DNA of 38,130 nucleotides from a bacterium (lineage in GTDB: Bacteria > Sysuimicrobiota > Sysuimicrobiia > Sysuimicrobiales > Humicultoraceae), in contig JBGPNN010000003.1 of the NCBI GenBank assembly GCA_041487495.1, forward strand, positions 1-38,130. Reading direction: 5' to 3'. Positions 25,566 to 36,254 of the stretch are shown here, piece by piece; position 1 is the stretch's first letter; each line of letters starts with the position of its first letter. Below the pieces are notes generated by a model. That model was not told the DNA's origin. It was given only the letters and a program-made list of their open reading frames with translations, and searched no databases. Both the position numbers and the translations under genes were made by a program.

Positions 25566-26468
25566 ATGACGGGGGAACTCGCGGCACTGGCGGCCGCGCT
25601 CGCGTTCGGTCTCAGCACGGTGATGGCCCGACGATTCATGGACACGGTCGCGCCAGAAGCCGGGGTGCTGGTCAGCATCGTGACCAACGTGGCCGTGTTC
25701 GCCGCGCTGACGGTCGCGACGGCGCTCCGCCACGGCCTGCCGACCGTGACGTTGCCCGCGGTGGCGCTATTCATCCTGGGGGGATTGGCTGGGACCCTGT
25801 TGGGACGGAATCTCTCCTACCGGAGCATCGAGCGCCTCGGTCCCTCACTCCTGACCACGATCCGGTTCAGCCAGACCATTTTCACCCTGCTGCTCGGGCT
25901 GTTCCTACTCCACGAACTCCCACGGCCTTGGCAACTTGCGGGGCTGGCGGTGCTTATGCTGGGCTTGTGGATCAGCCTGTCGGGCGCGCCGGCCTCGCCT
26001 CGTAGCGTAAGTTCGCAGGCACCGGCCCCCGCGCGCAGAGACCTGGCCGCGCTCATGATCGCCTTTGCAAGCGCGGCGGCATTCGCACTCGGCGACACGG
26101 TGCGCCGGGCGGCGCTGGGCCTCCTGCCATCACCGGTCCTCGGTGCGGCGATTGGCGCCTCGTCGGCGCTCGCCGCGCATCTGCTCTGGTCGATCATACA
26201 TCGCTCTGCACGATGGCCGGCCCGCCCGGCGCTGCGTCGGTTCGATCTCTGGATCAGCGCGATCTTCAATACGATCGCGATCCTGCTGTTGTACACGGGG
26301 CTGCGGTACGCGCCCGTGGCGATCGTCTCGGTGCTCTACAATCTGCAGGTGTTCGTCGTGCTGGCGGGCAGCCGCGTCTTGCTGCGTGGTCAGGAGGCGA
26401 TTGGCCGGGGGCTCGTGGCCGGATCGATCCTGGCCCTGACCGGGACGGCCATGATCCTCATGGGATGA
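25566..26468 (+). CDS. EamA/DMT family transporter
   Basis: About ten TM segments in two repeats, FLLHE and LLRGQE junctions. Confidence 0.85.
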   Translation: MTGELAALAAALAFGLSTVMARRFMDTVAPEAGVLVSIVTNVAVFAALTVATALRHGLPTVTLPAVALFILGGLAGTLLGRNLSYRSIERLGPSLLTTIRFSQTIFTLLLGLFLLHELPRPWQLAGLAVLMLGLWISLSGAPASPRSVSSQAPAPARRDLAALMIAFASAAAFALGDTVRRAALGLLPSPVLGAAIGASSALAAHLLWSIIHRSARWPARPALRRFDLWISAIFNTIAILLLYTGLRYAPVAIVSVLYNLQVFVVLAGSRVLLRGQEAIGRGLVAGSILALTGTAMILMG

Positions 26469-27561
26469 GGGCTGCGTCGGGTTCGCGGGAGGCCATCTCT
26501 TCGACGAGCCGCTCGGCCATAAGGCTGTGCCACTGCCGCATCGCCCCTTGGAACGTTTCGCGATACGCTTCCCATGCTTCCCGCTGCTTGCGGTTGCGGA
26601 ACTTCCCCACGCGGAAAACCAACCGCGTTCCACCGTCCGCCGGCGAAAGCTCGAACGTGTACTTCGTGAGGCCCAGCCCAGGGACCATCGCCTGGATCGT
26701 GAAATAGTGGAAGGGTCGCCAGTCCTGGATGTCCTCGATGACCGTTCCTGGGCCGTGGACGCAGTGGTTGGTCGTCCCGATCCCGCGGCGGCCCCTGGCG
26801 TTGGTTTGGTCAAGCCGGTCGGTCCCGACCTGATACAACATGCGCTTGGCCGGATCGGTCAGATACTCCCATACCACCGCGGGAGGAGCAGGCTGCAACG
26901 ACTCCATCACGATCGCCGCGTTCTCCGGCGTCACGATCACCCGGCGGTGGTCCTGCTCGTGCTTCCAGCCGGCCTCGAGGTCATGGACGAATGTCGCGAC
27001 CTCCCCGATGTGCTCGTAGGTCTCGAGATGAGGGCGCATGCCGAGCACCGCAGGGTCCGCGCCCATCGCCGCGACGCAGGCCTGGGTGACCAACGCGTAA
27101 CCGTTGAGGTGAAAGGTCTCGGCCACGGAGTTCTTCGACAGGCGGTGAACCAAGATCACGTCGGTGCCGGCCAACTCCTCGCGGCCAGCGATCCGATGCC
27201 GTACGAACTCGCCATAGTGAGCGAAGAACTTAAGGTTGAGGCTGGGGATCAGGACGCAGGCGTTGCAGAGGCACGTGGTGGCCTGACGGATGTTCTGGAG
27301 GCGGCGCCGGAACGCAAAGTAGCAGCCTTCTATGATATCCAGCAGCATCGACCCATCGATCTTGCCTTCGGGCGCGTAGGCGAAGGCGGCGTCGCCCTCG
27401 AGCTTGGCCAGACGAAACACCGGGCGGAGCGCGCCGACGACGGTCTCGACCAGGTCGGCGAGCACGTCGTGGGCGTGCTCGAGCTCGCTCCCGGCCAGGT
27501 AGCCGGTGTAGCCTGAGATGTCCGCGATAATGAGACAGCCGTGTTCGGCGCGAGTCAGCAT
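26458..27561 (-). CDS. DUF2652 (class III cyclase-like) domain fused to SRPBCC/START-like domain
   Basis: IADISGYT, KLEGDA, CLCNAC, LKFFAHYG, L.G.DVILVHRL.KN; C-terminal PPAVVWEYLTDP...NHCVHG...DWRPFHYFT. Confidence 0.82.
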   Translation of the reverse strand: MLTRAEHGCLIIADISGYTGYLAGSELEHAHDVLADLVETVVGALRPVFRLAKLEGDAAFAYAPEGKIDGSMLLDIIEGCYFAFRRRLQNIRQATTCLCNACVLIPSLNLKFFAHYGEFVRHRIAGREELAGTDVILVHRLSKNSVAETFHLNGYALVTQACVAAMGADPAVLGMRPHLETYEHIGEVATFVHDLEAGWKHEQDHRRVIVTPENAAIVMESLQPAPPAVVWEYLTDPAKRMLYQVGTDRLDQTNARGRRGIGTTNHCVHGPGTVIEDIQDWRPFHYFTIQAMVPGLGLTKYTFELSPADGGTRLVFRVGKFRNRKQREAWEAYRETFQGAMRQWHSLMAERLVEEMASREPDAALIP

Positions 27562-27664
27562 CTGACTATTCTTCGCCTCTCCCCTGGAATTTGGATGGCC
27601 CGACCGTCGATTCCTGGCTCCCGGCAGGACCGCGCATGAGGCGCGGCGCATAAGTCAGCCAGGG

Positions 27665-28372
27665 TTGTGGACGCATCTGGGGGAATTCGGTCTGTCTGCT
27701 TGGCTGTACCTGCTGCTGGCGCACCTCGTGGCCGACTTCCTTTTGCAACCGTACGAACTGGTCAAACTGAAGGGCCAGCCGCTCGGACTGGCGATCCACT
27801 CGGGTGTTCACGCGATCGTCACCGCGGTCCTGGTCGCCCCGTTTCTCCCCCGCTGGTGGCTCATCGTGCCGGTGCTGTCGGTGGTGCACTATTTCATCGA
27901 CTGGATGAAGGTCGCCGGCGGCCACACGGATGGACCGCGGTCGCTGGTGGCCTTCCTCGGTGACCAGGTCTTACACTTGATCGCGCTGACGCTCGCAGTC
28001 CTGGCCGCCGGGCTGGCGCCCGACGCGCACGTCACCTACGTGTCGCCGCGAATCACCTCGGTGTTATACTACGCGATTCCCTACCTGACCGCGACGTTTG
28101 CCGGCGCGATCCTCCTGTATCAGATCGCTCTGGCGTTTCATACTCGACCGAACCCGGCGCAGGCGCTTACGCTGGCGCCGCGCTTTGCGGGCATTATCGA
28201 GCGCGGCTTGGCGTTGACCGTGGTCCTGTTCCTGCCGCCGTCACTGTGGTGGGTGGCCGCAGTGCCCGCTGCGGTGATCTTGTGGCCGGACCGCACTGAG
28301 CGGGGGCGCTGGGTGGAAACGGCGGGCGGGCTCGGCTTCGCGTTCATCTTGGGGCTGGTGTTCCGCCAGTGA
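27665..28372 (+). CDS. DUF3307 family membrane protein
   Basis: AHLVADFLLQP, HSGVH, HYFIDWMK and DQVLH His motifs in TM helices. Confidence 0.8.
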   Translation: MWTHLGEFGLSAWLYLLLAHLVADFLLQPYELVKLKGQPLGLAIHSGVHAIVTAVLVAPFLPRWWLIVPVLSVVHYFIDWMKVAGGHTDGPRSLVAFLGDQVLHLIALTLAVLAAGLAPDAHVTYVSPRITSVLYYAIPYLTATFAGAILLYQIALAFHTRPNPAQALTLAPRFAGIIERGLALTVVLFLPPSLWWVAAVPAAVILWPDRTERGRWVETAGGLGFAFILGLVFRQ

Positions 28373-31300
28373 CACCGGGACCGAGCGAGAGTGGCGGGGC
28401 CGGCCCGAGCGAGCGCCGTGTCGTCACGGTGTTGTTCGCGGACATCGCCGGCTTCACGGCCATGGCGGAGCGCCTCGATCCCGAAACGGTTACCGACGCG
28501 ATGAACGTGATCTTCGCGCTGCTGGGCGCCGAGGTCGAGGCCGTCGGCGGCACCGTGGACAAGGTGATCGGCGACAATCTCATGGCGCTCTTTGGCGCCC
28601 CGGTCGCCCACGAAGATGACGCCCTGCGCGCGGTACGGGCGGCACGCGCCATGCAGCGGGGGATCGCGGCGCAACAGTCCGATCTGCAAAGGACCCTGGG
28701 TGGAGCGGTCCGCTTGCGCATCGGCATCCACACCGGACAGGTGGTCTGGGGTGCCGTGGGCCCTCCGGGGCAGACGCGGCCGACGGTCATGGGTGACACG
28801 GTGAACCTGGCCTCGCGGTTGCAGCGGGCGTCGCCGGAAGGCGGAGTGGTAGTCTCGGAGGCCGTGTGGCGTCAGGTGCGCGCGCACTACGAGGGGACAG
28901 CCTGGGAGCCGCTAGCGGTAAGGGGTAGGGCCGACGCCGTCGCCGTCTACGAAATCACCGGCGATCGGACGGGCGCCGAACCGTTGGAGCGGCCGCCGTT
29001 TGTGGATCGTCATGAAGAACTTGACCAACTGGATGACCTGTTTGCCCGTGCAACCCGGGGACGGGCGCAGGTGGCCATCATCACCGGCGATCCGGGCATC
29101 GGGAAGACCCGGCTGGTGGAGGAGTTCCTGTCGCGGCTGGCCGGTGATATCTCGATCCTGAGCACCACGTGCCTGCCGTATGGCGGGCAGAGTCTGAGCC
29201 CGCTGTCCGATCTGTTCCGCCAGTTCGCCGGGTTGTCGGGGCCGGTCACCCTACAGGATGTCGAGGCGCGGGTCGCGATGGGCGAACGAACCGCCCAGGC
29301 GGCCGTCATCCTCAGCCGGCTGTTCAATCTGGTTGAGATCCCGAGCGGCACGGACGTCAGTCAGGAGACCGCACTCTTGGTCGCGGCCGAAGCCATTCGC
29401 GGGATGATGAGGCGGGCGACAGTCGTCTGGATCGAAGACCTCCAGTGGGCCGATACCGGGACGCGCGAAGTCCTGCCGTTTGTCGTCGAACGCCTGGGTG
29501 AAACGCCTCTGCTCCTGATCGGGACGATACGCACCGGTGAGGCGCCACCGGTCTGGGGTCGACGGACGTCGGTCCGGACGTTGCCGCTCGACCCGTTGTC
29601 CGCCGACGATGCCGCCGCGCTGATCGCGGGGATCCTGGGCGAACGCCTCCCGGCCACCGTCGAGCACGCGCTCGTGGCCAAGGCCGCCGGTAATCCGTTC
29701 TACCTTAGCGAGATGTTGGCCACGTTGCGCGGTCGGGGGATCCTGGCGCTGGATGATCGCGGCCGATGGCGCGTCACCGGTTCCGTGGAAGATGTGTTGC
29801 CCGATACCGTGCATGCAGCGGTACTGGCGCGGCTCGACCGGTTGGCGCCCGATCTTCGGGCGCTGGTGCAGCGCGCATCGGTTGTAGGCACCGTGTTCCG
29901 GCAGTCCCTTGTTGCCGCGCTGGGTCGAGAGGTCGATATCGCTGGAGCGCTCGGCCAACTCGAGGACGCCGGTTTGATACGGCGCGCGGATCCGCTGGCC
30001 CCCGATCCCGAGTACGCGTTCGCACACCCGCTCCTGCGCGAGGTGGCATACGCCAGTTTGCTGACGAAGCACCAAACCGGTCTGCACCGAGAGATCGCGG
30101 AGATGACAGAGCGCCTCTACCCAGAGGCGCGTGATGAACAGGCGAAGGCCATCGCCACGCACTTCGTCCAGGCGGGCGATCCGCAGCGGGCGCTGCCGTA
30201 CCTGGTGACAGCGGGCGAGCGAGCTGCGAGACAATACGCGACCGGTGAGGCGATCCAGCTGCTCGAGCAGGCGCGGCGTCTGGCGGAAGACGCCGGCCAT
30301 GCCGAGTTGTGCGTGCCTGCATGTGAGCTGCTCGGTGATCTGTATCTGCACGTGCATGAGCGTGGTCCGAAGGACTGGCGCAGCGTCTGGGAGTTCGTGT
30401 ACGCGCACGTCGACCCGGCAGCAGATCCGATCCGGCGGGCTCGGGCGGCAATCCGGATCGCCCATGCCCTGTTCCACGAGAATCGGGCGGGGGAGACCGG
30501 CCCATACTTGGACGAGGCCGAGATGCTCATCCCCGCCGGCCACGTCCTCGAGAGCGACCTGCGCCGCGTCAGGGCGTTGACGCAGATCATGGCCACACGC
30601 TATCGGGACGCATTGGAGAACGCGGTGGAGGCCGTGCGCATTGCCGAGCGAGCGGGGACTATGGTGGATCGTTCGCGCGCGTATGCCGTGGTTGCGCATC
30701 CAGCCATCCTTCCGCTGCTGGGCGACGAGGGGCGCCGCATGATGAGTGCGTGGGTGAATCAGGTCGAGGCGACGGGCGACGAGCGGCTCTTGATCGAGGC
30801 CCGGCACCTCCTGCTCACCGACATCTGGACACGCGGAATCGTGGACACGGATCTGCTCAAGACGGTCGACGAAGCGCTGGGCAAGGCAGAGGACTACGGG
30901 TGGACGCGTGATGAGGCCGCGCTCAAAATGCTGCGGGGCTGGGCAGAGTTCCTGACGGGCGACTGGGTCGCGGCCGGCCGGTCCCTCGCCCGCGCGAAGG
31001 AGCTGATCGACCGCCAGGCGGGTGTCTTGCAGGGCTACTTGCACATCCTGCTGCCGCACTTCCGCGCCAACCTGGCCATGGCCCTGGGGCACCTGGAGGA
31101 GGCACAGCGGATCTTCGAGGAAGCGCTGGCCAAGCCGGGCCTCCACTCACCCATCTGGTTGAATCATGACCTGGCCCGGTGTCTGTTGATGCTGGGTGGT
31201 GAGCCGGCGGCCCGCGCGGCCATGCGGCTGTCGCTTGAGGCCAGGGATCGATTCGGCTGCATCATCTGTGGCTGTCAGGCGAACGGGGTGGCCGCGGAGT

Positions 31301-31674
31301 TCTATGCCACATTGGGCGACGCCGGTCCCGCGGAGACGCTGGCGCTTGAGGCTGAAGCGACCGCGCGGCGTCTCGGGCATGTGGCGACGCTCGTCCGCGC
31401 CCAACGGGCCCGCTCACGCCTGGCGCTGTATCGAGGCACCGCCCAGGATGCCCTCACAATGGCCAGGGCAGCCATCGATGTCGGTGCATCGTTCCCGATC
31501 GCGCAGCCCTATGAGTCGGGTCAGTCGCTGGCACTGCTCGGGCATGCGTACAAGGCGGCCGGAGACCGAGCGGCGGCAGTCGAGACATGGACCGCGGCGC
31601 GTGAGATCTTCAGCCGACTCGGCGCCGCGTGGCACATGGCGAGGACCGAAGAGGTACTGCAGGAGGTACAGTAG
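28369..31674 (+). CDS. Adenylate cyclase (class III) - STAND/AAA ATPase - TPR multidomain protein
   Basis: FADIAGFT, DKVIGD, TVMGDTVNLASRLQ; Walker A GDPGIGKT, Walker B WIEDLQWAD, GNP, FAHPLLREVAY; helical-repeat C-terminus. Confidence 0.92.
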   Translation: MTPGPSESGGAGPSERRVVTVLFADIAGFTAMAERLDPETVTDAMNVIFALLGAEVEAVGGTVDKVIGDNLMALFGAPVAHEDDALRAVRAARAMQRGIAAQQSDLQRTLGGAVRLRIGIHTGQVVWGAVGPPGQTRPTVMGDTVNLASRLQRASPEGGVVVSEAVWRQVRAHYEGTAWEPLAVRGRADAVAVYEITGDRTGAEPLERPPFVDRHEELDQLDDLFARATRGRAQVAIITGDPGIGKTRLVEEFLSRLAGDISILSTTCLPYGGQSLSPLSDLFRQFAGLSGPVTLQDVEARVAMGERTAQAAVILSRLFNLVEIPSGTDVSQETALLVAAEAIRGMMRRATVVWIEDLQWADTGTREVLPFVVERLGETPLLLIGTIRTGEAPPVWGRRTSVRTLPLDPLSADDAAALIAGILGERLPATVEHALVAKAAGNPFYLSEMLATLRGRGILALDDRGRWRVTGSVEDVLPDTVHAAVLARLDRLAPDLRALVQRASVVGTVFRQSLVAALGREVDIAGALGQLEDAGLIRRADPLAPDPEYAFAHPLLREVAYASLLTKHQTGLHREIAEMTERLYPEARDEQAKAIATHFVQAGDPQRALPYLVTAGERAARQYATGEAIQLLEQARRLAEDAGHAELCVPACELLGDLYLHVHERGPKDWRSVWEFVYAHVDPAADPIRRARAAIRIAHALFHENRAGETGPYLDEAEMLIPAGHVLESDLRRVRALTQIMATRYRDALENAVEAVRIAERAGTMVDRSRAYAVVAHPAILPLLGDEGRRMMSAWVNQVEATGDERLLIEARHLLLTDIWTRGIVDTDLLKTVDEALGKAEDYGWTRDEAALKMLRGWAEFLTGDWVAAGRSLARAKELIDRQAGVLQGYLHILLPHFRANLAMALGHLEEAQRIFEEALAKPGLHSPIWLNHDLARCLLMLGGEPAARAAMRLSLEARDRFGCIICGCQANGVAAEFYATLGDAGPAETLALEAEATARRLGHVATLVRAQRARSRLALYRGTAQDALTMARAAIDVGASFPIAQPYESGQSLALLGHAYKAAGDRAAAVETWTAAREIFSRLGAAWHMARTEEVLQEVQ

Positions 31675-31677
31675 ACG

Positions 31678-32115
31678 ATGGAGGGTCACGCGATGCCGGA
31701 ACGGGATGACATCGTCAACAGCATGGCCTCACTGGCGATGTTCGCCGATCTCTCGAAGCCGCAGCTGGAGGCCACGGCGCACATTTTCGAAGAGGAATGG
31801 TTTGCCGAAGGCCAGCGGATCCTCAGGCAAGGGTTCTCCGGGTCCAACTTCTATGTGATCCTCGAGGGCGAGGCGGCCATCCGGATCAACGACGAGACGC
31901 GGGCGGTCCTGGCGCGCGGCGAGTTCTTCGGTGAGGTGTCGGTGCTGCTCGGCGAGGCCCCGACCGCCGATGTGGTCGCGCTCCGGCCGCTGCGCTGCAT
32001 CGTGCTGCCGGGTGCCGAGGTCGAATCGTTCCTGGTGTCCTATCCGCATGTGATGTACCGGATGCTGCAGGCGCAGGCTCGGCGCTTGCGTAGCGCCAAC
32101 CTATGGCGAGGCTGA
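31678..32115 (+). CDS. Stand-alone cyclic nucleotide-binding domain protein (alternative start 31693)
   Basis: ILRQG...FYVILEGEA...GEFFGEVSVL fold motifs; no HTH domain. Confidence 0.88.
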   Translation: MEGHAMPERDDIVNSMASLAMFADLSKPQLEATAHIFEEEWFAEGQRILRQGFSGSNFYVILEGEAAIRINDETRAVLARGEFFGEVSVLLGEAPTADVVALRPLRCIVLPGAEVESFLVSYPHVMYRMLQAQARRLRSANLWRG

Positions 32116-33596
32116 TGGAACGGCCCTTCCCGCCGGGCCGCTACCCGCTGATCGTTGTCGGCAGCGGTCCGGGCGGTCTCCAGCTCAGTTACGTCCTCCG
32201 CCGGCTGGGCGTAGACCACGCGCTCCTCTCGCAAGATCCCGGTCCGGGCGGCATGTTCCTGCGGTACCCGCTGTTCCAACGGCTTAACACCTGGTCGAAA
32301 CCGTACGCACCGGCTGAGCGCGGCACGCGACCGTACGAGTGGTACGACTGGAACAGCCTGGTGGGGGATGTTCCCGAGCACGGGTCGACCGTCAGCGAGT
32401 TCATGGACGGGGTGTCATACTTCCCGGCCCGGACCGAAATGTGTCGAGGGCTATCGACGTTCGCTGCGCGGGGGCAAGTCCAGGCTCGGTACGATTGCCG
32501 TTGGGAGGGGACGCGTCGCGACGGCGACGGGTTCGTGTTACACACCTCTGACGGCGAGTATCAGTGTCAGGCGGTCGTCTTCGCCGTTGGCATGGCCCAG
32601 CCGTGGAAACCTCCGATCTCTGGCTTGGAGGACGTCCCACACTACGTTGAGACAAAGCCCGCCCGCGAGTATGCGGGCAAGCGCATCTTCATTATCGGCA
32701 AGCGGAACTCGGGGTTCGAAATCGCCGACGCCTTGTTGCCCTGGGCGAAGCAGATCATCCTGGGGTCGCCACGGCCGCCGATCATCTCAGTGTTCCATTC
32801 CGGCGCGGGTGTACGGGCCAAATACCTGATTCCGTACGAGGATTACGTGATGGGCGGCGGCGTGACCATCCTGGACGCATCTATCGAACGGGTTGAGCGA
32901 GAGGGAGAGGGGTTTCGGGTCTTCACGTCCGGCCCGGCGATCGGGCCGGTGCAGTTTGTTGTCGATTGCGCGATTGCGGCTACCGGGTTCACCTCGCCGC
33001 TCGGCGACCTCCCGGCGCTGGGCGTCGCGACCTTCAATCATGGTCGGCTCCCCCGCATGACGCACTACTGGGAGAGCGCCTCCGTCCCGGGCATCTACTT
33101 CGCCGGCACCGTGACCCAGGGCGCCCCTGGTCTTCGCAAGCACGGAGCCGCCGGCAACTCGGCCGCCGTCGGGGGGTTCCGTCACAATGCCAGGGTCCTG
33201 GCCCGGCATCTCGCGCACGAGCGCTTCGGCATCCGCCTGCCGGGGCAGCCGCTGCGCCGGGATGAGGTCACATCCTATCTGCTGTCCGAAGCGACCCGAG
33301 CGCCGGAGTTGTGGAATCAGCAGGCCTACCTGGCACGCGTCATCACGTTCGATCCCGGCGCGGGTATTGTCGACGATGGGATCCAGCCGCTGGCGGCGTT
33401 CGTGGACTCACCGGGCCTGGATGCCGTGGCCGTGAGCGTAGAACTCGATGCCAACGGCGCGATGCATCCAGGTATCTACCTGCGACGCGGCGGCCATGTC
33501 AGCGAGCATGCGCTGCCCGGCGATCCTCTGCTGAACTTCGAACGTGACCGGCACAAGACGGAGTTGGAGAGCCTGCTGAAAGACATCCCCGCTTAG
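32115..33596 (+). CDS. FAD/NAD(P)-dependent oxidoreductase (FOXRED2-like)
   Basis: VGSGPGG, PGGMF, YDWNSL, IIGKRNSGFE, ATGF, GIYFAGT, VGGFRHN; TGATG coupling to the cNMP gene. Confidence 0.82.
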   Translation: MERPFPPGRYPLIVVGSGPGGLQLSYVLRRLGVDHALLSQDPGPGGMFLRYPLFQRLNTWSKPYAPAERGTRPYEWYDWNSLVGDVPEHGSTVSEFMDGVSYFPARTEMCRGLSTFAARGQVQARYDCRWEGTRRDGDGFVLHTSDGEYQCQAVVFAVGMAQPWKPPISGLEDVPHYVETKPAREYAGKRIFIIGKRNSGFEIADALLPWAKQIILGSPRPPIISVFHSGAGVRAKYLIPYEDYVMGGGVTILDASIERVEREGEGFRVFTSGPAIGPVQFVVDCAIAATGFTSPLGDLPALGVATFNHGRLPRMTHYWESASVPGIYFAGTVTQGAPGLRKHGAAGNSAAVGGFRHNARVLARHLAHERFGIRLPGQPLRRDEVTSYLLSEATRAPELWNQQAYLARVITFDPGAGIVDDGIQPLAAFVDSPGLDAVAVSVELDANGAMHPGIYLRRGGHVSEHALPGDPLLNFERDRHKTELESLLKDIPA

Positions 33597-34021
33597 TGGC
33601 GGTGCGTGTCCTCCGCCGCGCGCAGACGCCGGGCCATCACGCGGAGCATGCCGACGGCGATCTTTGGATTGCGCTCGACCAGCTTGGTGAAGTCCCAGGA
33701 GGCCAGGGCCAGGCACACGGTCGGTTCAGCGGCGAGGATATGCGCCATCCGCGGCGACTGGTCCAGGACCGAGAGCTCCCCAAAGAAATCTCCCGGGCCG
33801 AGCACCGCGAGTTCATCGCTGCCCCGCAGCACGCGTGCGCGGCCGCTGACGATGAGATAGAATCCGGTACCGACTTGGTTCTGCCGCACGATGTATTGGC
33901 CAGGGGTGTAGGCGAGGACTTCGGCTTTGGAGGCGATGGTGCCGAGCGCGCGATCGGTCAGACCGGAGAACAACGCTACGCTACGCAGGTGCTCGATCTT
34001 GGCTTTTCTCGTCAGCGTCAT
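33593..34021 (-). CDS. Stand-alone cyclic nucleotide-binding domain protein
   Basis: IVRQ...FYLIVSG...GDFFGELSVLDQSPRMA canonical phosphate-binding cassette. Confidence 0.9.
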   Translation of the reverse strand: MTLTRKAKIEHLRSVALFSGLTDRALGTIASKAEVLAYTPGQYIVRQNQVGTGFYLIVSGRARVLRGSDELAVLGPGDFFGELSVLDQSPRMAHILAAEPTVCLALASWDFTKLVERNPKIAVGMLRVMARRLRAAEDTHRH

Positions 34022-34057
34022 CGCTCGTCCGGTTCGACGGGATGTCGATCGGTCCTC

Positions 34058-34603
34058 CTATTTGGAGAGATCACCGGGCTTGAAGGAACGCAACACGCTA
34101 TCGCAAAGTCGCTGACGCGTGCGCCACTCCGTCAGCGGCGCGGCGCAGATGAGATAGTGCAGGCGCTGCGGCCCGGTGATCAGCAGCCCTACCGATGCCC
34201 ACTCACGACCCCGCGTCGATCCGGTCAGCTCAAAGCGATACCATACGACCTGCTCCGTACTGGCATCGGTGCGCTGGAAACCGGAGACGCCGTGCATCGG
34301 CAGGAGGTTCATGGCCAGACGCCGGACTTCATATTCGGGCAGCGGTCCGGCGTCCGCGCGGGTCATCACGACGATGAACTCGGTCGCGCTGACCTCCGGG
34401 GCGTCGCCCTGTGGCAACGCCCGCGGCAGGAACCAGACGCGCCTGGCGTCGTCGGTCTCCACCGTCTGCCACGAGGCGGGCCGTTCGATCGCGAACCCGT
34501 GACGATCGCTGGTGTAGACCTGGGAGGACTCCCCGCCCGGCGCGCGGCCGCAGCCGGCCGCGAGGATAACGGCCAGAACGGCGAGCACGGTGGCAATCCT
34601 CAC
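34058..34603 (-). CDS. Lipoprotein, PsbP/Mog1-like
   Basis: Lipobox LAAG|C, Y.S..HGFAIERPASW and terminal SFKP patterns. Confidence 0.7.
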   Translation of the reverse strand: MRIATVLAVLAVILAAGCGRAPGGESSQVYTSDRHGFAIERPASWQTVETDDARRVWFLPRALPQGDAPEVSATEFIVVMTRADAGPLPEYEVRRLAMNLLPMHGVSGFQRTDASTEQVVWYRFELTGSTRGREWASVGLLITGPQRLHYLICAAPLTEWRTRQRLCDSVLRSFKPGDLSK

Positions 34604-34723
34604 GGTCGTTCTCTACGCCGCGTGGGCAACCGGCGCCTGCCGCCGTGCCGGGTGGCCGGCGGCGAGGGCGTGCCTTGCCGGAATGCCGGCGCCGCGGCAT
34701 GATGACCGCAGGAGGCTCGCCGG

Positions 34724-35383
34724 ATGATCGATGTGCACATCGACAGCTCTGCAGCGCCGCATCTGAGCGTAGCGGTCGTGGAGGCGGAGGGCCTCACCGT
34801 TACCGAGTACGATCCAGCGCTCCGGAGCGAAATTGATGCGGTGACCGCGCGAGTGCGATTGGCCTACGCGGGCCGGCAGCCCTCCGAGATCGCCGGCCTG
34901 CGGCCGGCGCGTGACCTCTATCATCGCATCGGAGTCGATCCCACGAAGCTCCGGCCGTCATCCGAAGCGTTGCTGAGGCGCGTGCTGCGGGGCGACGGCC
35001 TGCCGAAGATCAACTCACTGGTGGATATCAACAACCTGTGCTCGTTGGAGTTCCTGCTGCCAATCGGTCTGCACGATCTGGACCAGGTGCGGGGCAAGCT
35101 GGTGCTGCGGGTCGGCCGCTCCGGCGAAGGATACGAGGCCATCGGAAAGGGCGCGTACAGTGTCGACGGTCGTATCACGGCCGCCGACGACCAAGGGCCG
35201 TGTGGCAGCCCGACCAGTGACTCGCAGCGCACGATGATTACGCCGGTCACCCGGCGCTGCCTCATGATCGTCTACGCGCCGGTCGGGTATGAGCCCCGCA
35301 CGCTCGAGTCACACGCGGCGTTGGCGGCGTCGCGCCTCAGCCGGTTCGCCGGCGGCACCGTCGTGCAGACCCGGATCTTGTGA
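34724..35383 (+). CDS. Stand-alone B3/B4 domain protein (PheT-like tRNA editing domain)
   Basis: GVDPTKLRPSSEALLRR, INSLVDINN, PIGLHDLD, GSPTSDS. Confidence 0.88.
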   Translation: MIDVHIDSSAAPHLSVAVVEAEGLTVTEYDPALRSEIDAVTARVRLAYAGRQPSEIAGLRPARDLYHRIGVDPTKLRPSSEALLRRVLRGDGLPKINSLVDINNLCSLEFLLPIGLHDLDQVRGKLVLRVGRSGEGYEAIGKGAYSVDGRITAADDQGPCGSPTSDSQRTMITPVTRRCLMIVYAPVGYEPRTLESHAALAASRLSRFAGGTVVQTRIL

Positions 35384-35388
35384 CCAGA

Positions 35389-35922
35389 TCACGGTTTCCA
35401 CTTGATACCGCAACCCTTCGGCGGCGTCGCCGTGCTCGCAGGATCTCGGCCCGCCAACAGTGCGTCGACCGCGTCGCGCACGTAGTGATGGGTCACGGCG
35501 GTCGGATCCTCAAAGTTGTCATCCGGCGCGCCGTGGTAGCGCAGCACCCGTGCGCGGTCAAAGAGGAAGACCTCGGGCGTGCGGGTGGCGCCGAACCGCC
35601 GCGCCACTTCCTGTGTCTCATCGAACAGATAGGGGAAGGGATAGGCTTTCTCACGCACGCGGGTGGCCATCGCCTCGAAGGAGTCGTCGGGATACGCGGC
35701 CGGATCGTTGCTGCTGATCATGATGAGCTGAACCCCTCGGCCGGCATACGCGCGCTGCAACGCGATCATCCGGTCCTCCCAGGCCTTCACGTAAGGGCAG
35801 TGATTGCACCAGAAGACGACGCCCACCACCGGGCTGCTCGCGAACTGGTCCGATGAAACCGTGGTCCCGTCGGTTGCCGGTAGGCTGAACGACACGAGCC
35901 GTTCGTGCAGTGCGAGTGGCAT
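35389..35922 (-). CDS. Thioredoxin/AhpC-TSA family protein
   Basis: FWCNHCPYV, ISSND..YPDDSF, FPYLFDETQEVA, TPEVF, GCGIKW. Confidence 0.9.
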   Translation of the reverse strand: MPLALHERLVSFSLPATDGTTVSSDQFASSPVVGVVFWCNHCPYVKAWEDRMIALQRAYAGRGVQLIMISSNDPAAYPDDSFEAMATRVREKAYPFPYLFDETQEVARRFGATRTPEVFLFDRARVLRYHGAPDDNFEDPTAVTHHYVRDAVDALLAGRDPASTATPPKGCGIKWKP

Positions 35923-36254
35923 CAGCACTCTCCTTGTGCGGGATCCTGTCGCGCTCGCACCGCCTGCCTGATCATCGTGGCCGTCGGCAGCGGTGAGAGG
36001 CGGCCGGTCTCTGTACGATACGTCCGGCACGTGAGCATCGCGGTACCCTGTACGCCTTCGGGCTGCAGGTCGACCCCATTGAGGCGGATCGTCGGCGATC
36101 CCGGGAACCGGTGACGCTCCGCATCTGCTTGCGAGTCGATGCGGACGATCTCCACCGGATCCACGACGCCCTCTTCACGCAAGATCGCACGCAGCCGGGC
36201 CAGCGCGTCCGGATGTGAAGGACAATCTTCCCAGTACAGGAATTCAATCTTCAT
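35922..36254 (-). CDS. Small thioredoxin-like protein (DUF2703 / DF-family-like)
   Basis: LYWEDCPSH, FPGSPTIRLNGVD, CRTY; stop overlaps the next ATG. Confidence 0.8.
   Translation of the reverse strand: MKIEFLYWEDCPSHPDALARLRAILREEGVVDPVEIVRIDSQADAERHRFPGSPTIRLNGVDLQPEGVQGTAMLTCRTYRTETGRLSPLPTATMIRQAVRARQDPAQGEC

Follow-up and report, generated by a model that had tools for sequence, protein, structure and literature searches.

The DNA considered here, referred to below as the window, is a stretch of 38,130 nucleotides corresponding to contig C3 of the bacterial assembly G000 (3.38 Mb in 349 contigs, 91.6% complete). The element in question is a group of genes at positions 26458 to 34021 in which a small protein with a cyclic-nucleotide-binding (CNB) fold, cNMP1, is encoded directly ahead of a flavoprotein. 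cNMP1 (31678-32115, plus strand) has 145 residues and matches the Pfam model cNMP_binding (PF00027) at 55.1 bits; the flavoprotein (32103 or 32115 to 33596, plus strand) has 497 or 493 residues and matches Pyr_redox_3 at 89.4 bits. Upstream on the same strand lie a DUF3307 gene (27665-28372; 235 residues from a TTG start; PF11750, 62.1 bits) and a cyclase-STAND-TPR gene (28369-31674; 1101 residues; Guanylate_cyc 86.5 bits, AAA_16 75.4 bits, TPR below cut-off). The group is bounded on the minus strand by a gene for a DUF2652 and SRPBCC protein (26458-27651; 397 residues; DUF2652 98.6 bits, Polyketide_cyc2/SRPBCC 38.7 bits) and by a second CNB gene, cNMP2 (33593-34021; 142 residues; PF00027, 71.2 bits). 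All six are open frames with high third-position G + C content, as judged from a listing of open reading frames (ORFs) and from codon-position composition. The same two sources place with them a seventh gene, orf181 (34058-34603, minus strand), whose predicted lipoprotein product of 181 residues has a lipobox-like LAAGC motif and no Pfam match above cut-off.

Read directly from the sequence, the DUF3307 and cyclase genes overlap by GTGA (28369-28372), a gap of 3 nt (31675-31677) separates the cyclase gene from cNMP1, cNMP1 and the flavoprotein gene meet at TGATG (32113-32117), and the stop codons of the flavoprotein gene and cNMP2 overlap convergently (33593-33596). The six genes and their junctions are thus as given in a preliminary description of this DNA, with ORFs, Pfam and direct reading in agreement. 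The database gene call for the flavoprotein begins at 32115; translation from the ATG at 32103 yields an N-terminus that better matches the homologue consensus MAxLxxRPFPPG. Because that consensus is reproduced, the ATG at 32103 is probably the real start and the overlap with cNMP1 would then be 13 nt. NCBIfam offered no equivalog for any gene of the locus, every match lying far under its cut-off. Across positions 26000-35500 a promoter scan returned 0 promoter-like sites and a terminator scan returned 6 terminator-like sites where shuffles gave 3.2 +/- 1.9, a result that is uninformative.

The association of cNMP1 with the flavoprotein is conserved well beyond the window. A scan using one genome per species located 33 flavoprotein loci at 53-80% identity, titled as Armatimonadota, Actinomycetota (Gaiellales, Thermoleophilia, and others), and Chloroflexota, and the window proteins were then run against them by tblastn. 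All 31 loci with upstream DNA have cNMP1 immediately ahead of the flavoprotein gene and in the same orientation; the sequences of the two loci outside this count (L002 and L028) start within that gene. Among genomes of relatives the flavoprotein is present, in single copy, in 28 of 61 (G000 included), or 26 of 59 when two unpublished genomes are set aside. Nine of the 20 regions taken from these genomes proved to be DNA of earlier loci, and cNMP1 lay upstream in all 11 new ones. An even sample of 201 Actinomycetota genomes, searched with a protein of a sister family, matched at 20 places, 15 of which belong to the flavoprotein subfamily of the window (50-65% identity) and five to the sister family. 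cNMP1 was again upstream in 8/8 further subfamily loci, a count that excludes four duplicates (one of them cut at its 5' end) and three loci from unpublished genomes, the latter also with cNMP1.

In total, cNMP1 is directly upstream of the flavoprotein gene in 50 of 50 distinct loci with upstream DNA. By comparison, no CNB gene was present within the 1.5-kb flanks of the five sister-family loci (GKGNS[GA], 31-32% identity) or within 5 kb of a Nonomuraea sister-family locus, so that neighbouring CNB genes number 50/50 for the subfamily versus 0/6 for its sister. The flavoprotein is single-copy in the window's own genome, and cNMP1 has no close paralogue there, its next best match being cNMP2 at 33%. 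The conserved core of the locus is two genes only, cNMP1 and the flavoprotein gene. The earlier proposal that a cNMP protein and an oxidoreductase form a conserved unit is supported by adjacency in 50/50 loci; co-occurrence across genomes, which had also been suggested as a check, is complete for the cNMP gene and partial for cyclase genes (19/44). No description of a pairing between a CNB protein and a flavoprotein or oxidoreductase was found in the literature searched, most subscription journals and all supplements lying outside that search, and publications on stand-alone cNMP-binding proteins and on STAND cyclases, judged by titles and the starts of abstracts, included none on the pair. 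The pair is a real and apparently undescribed regulator-flavoenzyme unit.

Eleven library representatives matched both cNMP1 and the flavoprotein. Seven of them were inspected and rejected as fusions, being patches of homology between Arg/Pro/Ala-rich out-of-frame stretches, and P0281 is of the same nature. Judging from the seven, we take the 11 as frameshifted gene calls over adjoining genes. Some individual loci have features of their own. In L032 (8001-9459), from a metagenome-assembled genome with a complete chromosome, the flavoprotein gene runs in two frames, interrupted by a stop near residue 371, and may have suffered a frameshift or be a pseudogene. Downstream of the pair in a Chloroflexota locus (L024:3877-6152) come genes for a small TPR protein and for an MFS transporter that ends in a cNMP_binding domain. 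In a Gaiellales-titled locus (L022:2771-7542), two genes precede the pair, one for an 814-residue Pyr_redox_2 protein whose N-terminus carries a long extension, the other for a membrane protein of the Proton_antipo_M (NuoL/Mrp-like) kind. ORFs of similar size stand at the places matching these L022 neighbours in L032, which is titled only Actinomycetes.

Physical association of the two proteins is predicted by structure modelling. Three complex predictions and three controls were run with alignments of 17 rows for the flavoprotein and 24 rows for cNMP1. The interface score ipSAE reached 0.77, 0.75, and 0.65 (median 0.75) versus 0.00, 0.00, and 0.00 in the controls, with a predicted local distance difference test score (pLDDT) of at least 80 for the partner and at least 79% of contacts shared between runs. 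Among solved complexes 58 of 80 attained the pass mark, and among mismatched pairs 2 of 110, figures that are rough here, own alignments having been used. Modelling of the cNMP protein-oxidoreductase complex, as recommended in the preliminary description, was thus passed at 0.75 against a best control of 0.00. We know of no solved complex between a CNB protein and a flavoprotein of this kind, and it therefore seems unlikely that the pass stems from the memory of the model. The predicted interface involves flavoprotein residues 218-220, 254-256, 305-308, 314, 322, 338, and 340-346, together with 430-431, 445-446, and 462-466 of its C-terminal domain, and cNMP1 residues 27-57, 92, 94, and 106-113. 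A 5-residue insertion at about residues 339-349, found only in the CNB-paired flavoprotein subfamily, coincides with interface residues 338 and 340-346. A separate observation concerns flavoprotein residues 222-250, which border the predicted interface (218-220, 254-256) and include many invariant positions (R234, Y237, P240, E242, D243, G249) yet are modelled with pLDDT below 50; this segment may become ordered only in the complex.

The AF2 model of the flavoprotein itself (pLDDT 80.7, predicted template modelling score 0.83) has a two-dinucleotide-binding-domain fold followed by a C-terminal domain of about 120 residues. Foldseek aligned some 375 residues, at 18-20% identity, to YpdA/Bdr (7a76, E 1.5e-19), to the flavin monooxygenases 4c5o, 4a9w, and 4usr, and to the thioredoxin reductase (TrxR)-like 2zbw, and the closest match among PDB sequences is 4usr (E 2.6e-9). 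Folded alone, the C-terminal domain reaches pLDDT 92.7 and has no PDB match by Foldseek at E <=0.001 (best E 0.17). The FAD motif, GSGPGG, is intact. In YpdA the redox-active Cys lies within the FAD-binding motif; the flavoprotein alignment has no Cys there and no CxxC, its sole invariant Cys being C128, and a disulfide reductase of the TrxR or YpdA type was rejected on this basis. Database entries give the subfamily no name other than 'NAD(P)-binding domain-containing protein' or 'thioredoxin reductase', and since there is one invariant Cys and no CxxC, the latter name is probably wrong. The second dinucleotide motif reads GK[R/Q/M]NSG in 5 intact full-length subfamily sequences (26 aligned), GKRNSG in the window, and GK[R/Q]NS[G/A] in all 17 rows of the flavoprotein alignment, in comparison with GKGNS[A/G] in the sister family. 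A class B flavoprotein monooxygenase (FMO type), defined by two GxGxxG/A motifs, was also rejected, the second motif being altered. The subfamily is derived, having lost this Gly and gained a loop placed at the predicted interface.

The wider family comprises 1605 representatives at E <=0.001 in a search of the whole library, and the 237 at E <=1e-30 stand for the subfamily. Some proteins of the wider family carry an adenylation-carrier module (P0225) or an IDO domain (P0260) in fusion, and because of these fusions its members outside the subfamily probably act on small molecules. A eukaryotic FOXRED2 cluster ranked 13th, with a score of 0.98, in a feature-based Atlas search, and on this match of features the label 'FOXRED2-like' is only a lead.

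Both small proteins have the CNB fold. The PF00027 cut-off of 27.5 bits is exceeded by each, and their PDB matches to CNB domains of PKG and PKA reach E 1e-31 for cNMP1 and E 1e-40 for cNMP2. The cassette of cNMP2 is canonical (FGE...PRMA), its P-R-M-A aligning over P-R-S-A of PKG. Half of the distinct loci (26 of 52) have a second CNB gene beside the pair, placed convergently downstream in loci of the Armatimonadota type and divergently upstream in Actinomycetota. Elsewhere, in the 605-residue protein P0285, known from one contig, an Arg-less CNB domain with 41% identity to cNMP1 stands N-terminal to a class II DAHP synthase (PF01474) in clean sequence, which suggests that this CNB clade can act as an allosteric module on metabolic enzymes. 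P0287 and P0289 (320 and 307 residues) combine a flavin reductase (PF01613) with a C-terminal CNB domain that has the cassette Arg and is 39-40% identical to cNMP1, an independent link of CNB domains to flavin enzymes. All of these fusions are leads only.

The roles of the catalytic residues of class III cyclases are established. In the cyclase domain of the window, at about residues 13-200, both metal-binding Asp residues and the Lys, Thr, Asn, and Arg are all kept, as compared with CyaB (3r5g) and Cya2 (2w01). This residue pattern, with its Lys/Thr specificity pair, marks the protein as a putative adenylate cyclase, and the complete catalytic set upholds its earlier designation as a cyclase. 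Its AAA_16 match (75.4 bits) is well above the cut-off of 32.6, and the TPR models (17.5-18.4 bits) are all under theirs. All six catalytic residues are also present in the cyclases of L003, L008, L012, L022, L030, and L032; the STAND cyclases of L004 and L007 are without Lys and Asn.

A class III cyclase-domain gene lies near the pair in 19 of 44 loci with kilobase-scale flanks, in four architectures. An orthologue of the STAND-TPR cyclase is directly upstream of cNMP1 in 6/44 other loci (L003, L008, L009, L041, L042, L043), and degenerate STAND cyclases occur on the opposite strand in L004, L007, and L037 and also in L041 and L042. L012 has a stand-alone cyclase of 194 residues upstream of the pair, and in nine loci a cyclase gene follows it directly, that of L022 encoding a polytopic membrane protein of 470 residues. 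Of these, five have titles that name Gaiellales or Gaiellaceae and one a title that names Thermoleophilia; the titles of the other three give no more than Actinomycetota or Actinomycetes. DUF2652 constitutes a further, fifth cyclase-like type in 4/44 loci. The genomes examined hold 4-19 cyclase domains per 1.5-4 Mb, and from this density the chance of a cyclase within about 5 kb can be put roughly at 5% per locus. G000 itself has 17 class III cyclase-domain matches, several in frames of 1000-1180 residues like that of the window, and 11 cNMP_binding matches, a cNMP network that is unusually dense for the size of the genome. The gene order in L001 is DUF3307-cNMP1-flavoprotein with no cyclase, which suggests that the STAND cyclase was inserted between DUF3307 and cNMP1. 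In L043 (3079-3186), the STAND cyclase gene is closely preceded by a fragment similar (53% identity) to the first 37 or so residues of cNMP1, and this fragment may be a scar of cyclase insertion before cNMP1.

The DUF2652 (PF10851) match of the divergent gene, at 98.6 bits, compares with a cut-off of 22.1. Alignment of DUF2652 to cyclase domains by hhalign gave a probability of 77% and E 2e-5 with both metal-Asp motifs aligned, from a shallow profile of three sequences; by eye, the Asn of the VNxASR motif seems to be replaced in the window protein. DUF2652 has been published as a predicted nucleotide-cyclase-like family, one Bradyrhizobium protein of which has a polyketide-cyclase domain (PMC4886424, Biol Direct 2016). 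Together with the hhalign result this sustains the initial view of the protein as cyclase-like. Against PDB sequences the DUF2652-SRPBCC protein had 0 matches at E <=1. Its gene divergently adjoins the pair in L004, L008, L010, and L037.

The DUF3307 protein is a polytopic membrane protein, with hydrophobic segments visible in the translation. Its homologues align from residue 28 onward only, and the real start may be further in than the TTG. The gene is upstream of the pair in nine of the 44 loci (L001, L003, L005, L007, L008, L009, L041, L042, L044) and stands directly before cNMP1 wherever the STAND cyclase is missing; a literature search judged by titles only found nothing relevant on this family. 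The lipoprotein gene orf181 precedes cNMP2 by 36 nt on their shared minus strand, has a PsbP match below the Pfam cut-off (E 0.0031), and is kept beside cNMP2 in L001-L004, L007-L009, L037, and L041-L044. The self-contained module initially drawn is not borne out as a unit: the STAND cyclase is directly upstream in 6/44 loci and DUF2652-SRPBCC is present in 4/44. Around the locus are genes for isocitrate dehydrogenase, an ABC ATPase, EamA, a B3_4 protein, and a peroxiredoxin-type protein, and the EamA and B3_4 genes flank the locus in many relatives. The B3_4 gene (34724-35383, plus strand) encodes a stand-alone domain protein that is syntenic with the module in many relatives, and the gene at 35389-36030 (minus strand) encodes an AhpC/TSA-Redoxin protein; both are close downstream of the module.

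The reading that we favor, with confidence only a little above even, is that cNMP1 is a ligand-controlled regulatory subunit of a derived flavoprotein, which at this locus is wired to a cAMP-making STAND cyclase with cNMP2 as a nearby canonical sensor. cNMP1 would dock on a distinctive flavoprotein subfamily of the FOXRED2/Pyr_redox_3 type. In this genome the pair follows, in translational coupling, the gene for the cyclase-STAND-TPR protein, read as a soluble sensor adenylate cyclase, and is flanked by that for a canonical receptor of the cAMP/cGMP type, cNMP2. A signal perceived by the STAND-TPR cyclase would then raise cAMP, the CNB protein or proteins would respond, and the activity of the flavoprotein would change, giving an output that is post-translational and neither transcriptional nor defensive. 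We infer that a nucleotide ligand controls the complex, and likewise which CNB protein senses it and what role the flavoprotein plays; the weakest steps concern what cNMP1 binds and what chemistry the flavoprotein performs. The route from cyclase through receptor to redox enzyme that had first been put forward thus retains its conserved pair and a complex that passed modelling, and loses ground at the module boundaries, the cNMP1 Arg, and the NAD(P)H motif.

Several observations weigh against this reading. The phosphate-binding cassette of canonical CNB domains contains an Arg within its R-[ST/A]-A portion. In cNMP1 the position is occupied by Pro in 24 of 24 aligned orthologues (Pro95 in the window) and is followed by T/V-A-D with an Asp invariant in all 24; HMMER alignment to Plasmodium PKG (5dyk) sets P-T-A of cNMP1 over R-S-A, and Arg stood in none of the cassettes that a regular expression could extract, from 11 of the 15 cNMP1 matches beside the Actinomycetota subfamily loci. 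cNMP1 retains the cassette Glu (FGE) yet lacks the Arg expected of a canonical CNB receptor. The role of this Arg, which neutralizes the cyclic phosphate, has been described, and trypanosomatid PKA regulatory subunits without it bind nucleosides and not cAMP (PMC10959531). Because the Arg is lost, direct binding of cAMP or cGMP by cNMP1 appears doubtful, and of the two stand-alone cNMP receptors originally proposed, cNMP2 stands with its Arg and cNMP1 is in doubt. In the flavoprotein, the second Gly of the NAD(P)H motif GxGxxG is replaced by R, Q, or M across the subfamily. Loss of that Gly in Rossmann folds normally disfavors ordinary NAD(P)H binding, and the description of the protein as a redox enzyme is weakened by a motif that is degenerate in the whole subfamily. 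The complex score is model confidence and not a measurement, and the predicted interface is not enriched for invariance (9/28 flavoprotein positions versus 31% overall, 6/26 cNMP1 positions versus 30%), so that conservation adds nothing for the complex. No true CNB-flavoprotein fusion was present among the 11 candidate library representatives, as judged from the seven inspected. Finally, 25 of 44 loci have no cyclase near the pair, among them that of the closest relative, L001 (80% identity), and the window genome is rich in cyclases, with 17 such domains. Cyclase linkage is facultative yet recurrent, and it is taken as support rather than proof because the 19 positive loci represent about 4-5 independent events.

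The principal alternative retains the complex and discards the cyclic nucleotide. Here cNMP1 would no longer sense cyclic nucleotides, serving as a binder of another small molecule (nucleoside, other nucleotide, or metabolite) or as a permanent structural subunit, while the cyclases and the second CNB gene would belong to the general cNMP network of the genome without acting on the pair; we consider this possible, although somewhat unlikely. It accords with the replacement of Arg by Pro and the invariant Asp after the cassette, with the nucleoside-binding precedent of the Arg-less trypanosomatid subunits (PMC10959531), with the 25 loci that have no cyclase nearby, and with the 17 cyclase and 11 CNB domains of the window genome. 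The Arg-less cNMP1-like domain of P0285 points the same way. For the class II DAHP synthase to which that domain is fused, no regulation by cNMP is known. However, unrelated cyclase architectures have been recruited beside the pair in different lineages, in 19/44 loci versus roughly 5% expected, a canonical CNB gene flanks it in 26/52 loci in two arrangements, and only 3 nt lie between the cyclase gene and cNMP1 in the window.

A variant of the preferred ligand-controlled complex, unlikely in our estimation, is a PKA-like holoenzyme built around the flavoprotein, with cNMP1 as the permanent dock and cNMP2 supplying the cAMP-sensing half of a regulator whose tandem CNB domains are split, such that cAMP from the cyclases recruited nearby would switch the flavoprotein on or off. 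In a bolder form, the degenerate second nucleotide site of the flavoprotein and the cassette of cNMP1 would together make a composite ligand site.

Less probable still is that only cNMP1 and the flavoprotein are tied and that DUF2652-SRPBCC, DUF3307, the STAND cyclase, cNMP2, and the lipoprotein are neighbors by descent in one lineage of Armatimonadota. The accessory genes are indeed missing from most loci (a STAND cyclase stands directly upstream in 6/44, DUF2652 is present in 4/44 and DUF3307 in 9/44), and the closest relative, L001, is without both cyclase-type genes. Opposed to this are the GTGA overlap and 3-nt gap that couple DUF3307, cyclase, and cNMP1, the placement of DUF2652-SRPBCC directly divergent from cNMP1 with nothing between in L004 and L010, and the recruitment of unrelated cyclases in Gaiellales-type loci and in L012.

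A Pycsar-kind anti-phage system, in which infection would trigger the cyclase and a CNB effector would kill or arrest the cell, is very improbable: STAND NTPases are common in defence, and PADLOC models match the cyclase domain (PycC, best E 2.4e-25) and both CNB proteins (Pycsar effectors, best E 2.8e-18), but these are generic cyclase and CNB matches, with effector models of 288-306 positions covered only at about 12-146, the CNB proteins (142-145 residues) have no TIR or membrane-toxin domain and no other Pfam domain, the flavoprotein has no PADLOC match, the cyclase specificity residues (Lys/Thr) are of the adenylate-cyclase type, and the locus is single-copy among housekeeping neighbors with the same EamA/B3_4 flanks in many relatives. 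No match was found in 50,697 phage records, and the sole match in 72,556 plasmid records is at 33% identity in a record of 11.85 Mb and is no real plasmid occurrence. The suggestion of defence made in the preliminary description accordingly finds no support, and such a role is unlikely.

Should the PKA-like holoenzyme variant be correct, it would constitute a new class of bacterial cAMP effector through which a second messenger acts directly on redox chemistry. Few bacterial cAMP or cGMP effectors are known to us beyond transcription factors of the CRP type. The CNB-fold protein and the flavoprotein form an obligate pair, conserved in three or more phyla and with an interface predicted between them, beside which cyclases have repeatedly and independently been recruited. 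The pair is a testable candidate for post-translational control of a redox enzyme by a second messenger. It also provides a natural case of a CNB domain that is without the phosphate-binding Arg and still strongly conserved.

Known systems share parts of this arrangement. The cyclase-STAND-TPR protein resembles the TOMM kinase/cyclase fusion TIGR03903, which it matches at 219 bits over the cyclase-NTPase part (cut-off 705.75), with AAA_16 and putative helical repeats, matched by TPR models below cut-off, likewise in common. Mycobacterial Rv0386-type proteins are class III cyclases of the cyclase-ATPase (STAND) kind from Actinobacteria. In contrast to these types, the window protein has no kinase domain and no detected C-terminal HTH, and it is operon-coupled to a CNB-flavoprotein pair. 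The C-terminal polyketide-cyclase/SRPBCC domain of the DUF2652 protein is common to the Bradyrhizobium protein, whereas no link to a CNB-flavoprotein pair is reported for published DUF2652 proteins in the portion of PMC4886424 available and the Asn seems, by eye, to be replaced in the window. With Pycsar the locus shares a class III-type cyclase gene beside a CNB-domain gene, both matched by PADLOC models, but it differs in its lack of a toxic effector domain, adenylate-cyclase residues, chromosomal synteny, and a flavoprotein partner without a PADLOC match. The flavoprotein has about 375 residues of common fold with YpdA/Bdr (7a76), the monooxygenases 4a9w, 4c5o, and 4usr, and the TrxR-like ferredoxin-NADP reductase 2zbw (Foldseek E 1e-19 to 1e-17), from which it is set apart by its 18-20% identity, absence of CxxC, GK[R/Q/M]NSG motif, extra C-terminal domain, and obligate CNB partner.

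For the CNB side of the pair, mycobacteria possess a lysine acetyltransferase that is regulated by cAMP. This enzyme (4ava and 4oll, among the cNMP2 matches) is likewise a case of a CNB fold controlling an enzyme rather than a transcription factor, and similarity to the CNB domain of NCBIfam 'acetyltransferase Pat' was found for cNMP2 (E 7.6e-12) and cNMP1 (E 4.7e-9). The acetyltransferase carries its CNB domain in cis, whereas the locus has a separate CNB polypeptide, a flavoprotein as the enzyme, and an obligate partner without the Arg. In PKA the cassette docks on the catalytic subunit. The holoenzyme is similar to the arrangement proposed here in that a stand-alone regulatory CNB subunit is predicted to sit on a catalytic partner with cassette residues 92 and 94 of cNMP1 at the interface, and dissimilar in that the flavoprotein is not a kinase and each protein has one CNB domain rather than a tandem. 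The trypanosomatid PKA R subunits have likewise lost the cassette Arg, and in them the ligand has been switched (PMC10959531). In cNMP1 the replacement is Pro rather than a polar residue, and in place of their Ala-to-Glu change it has Ser88.

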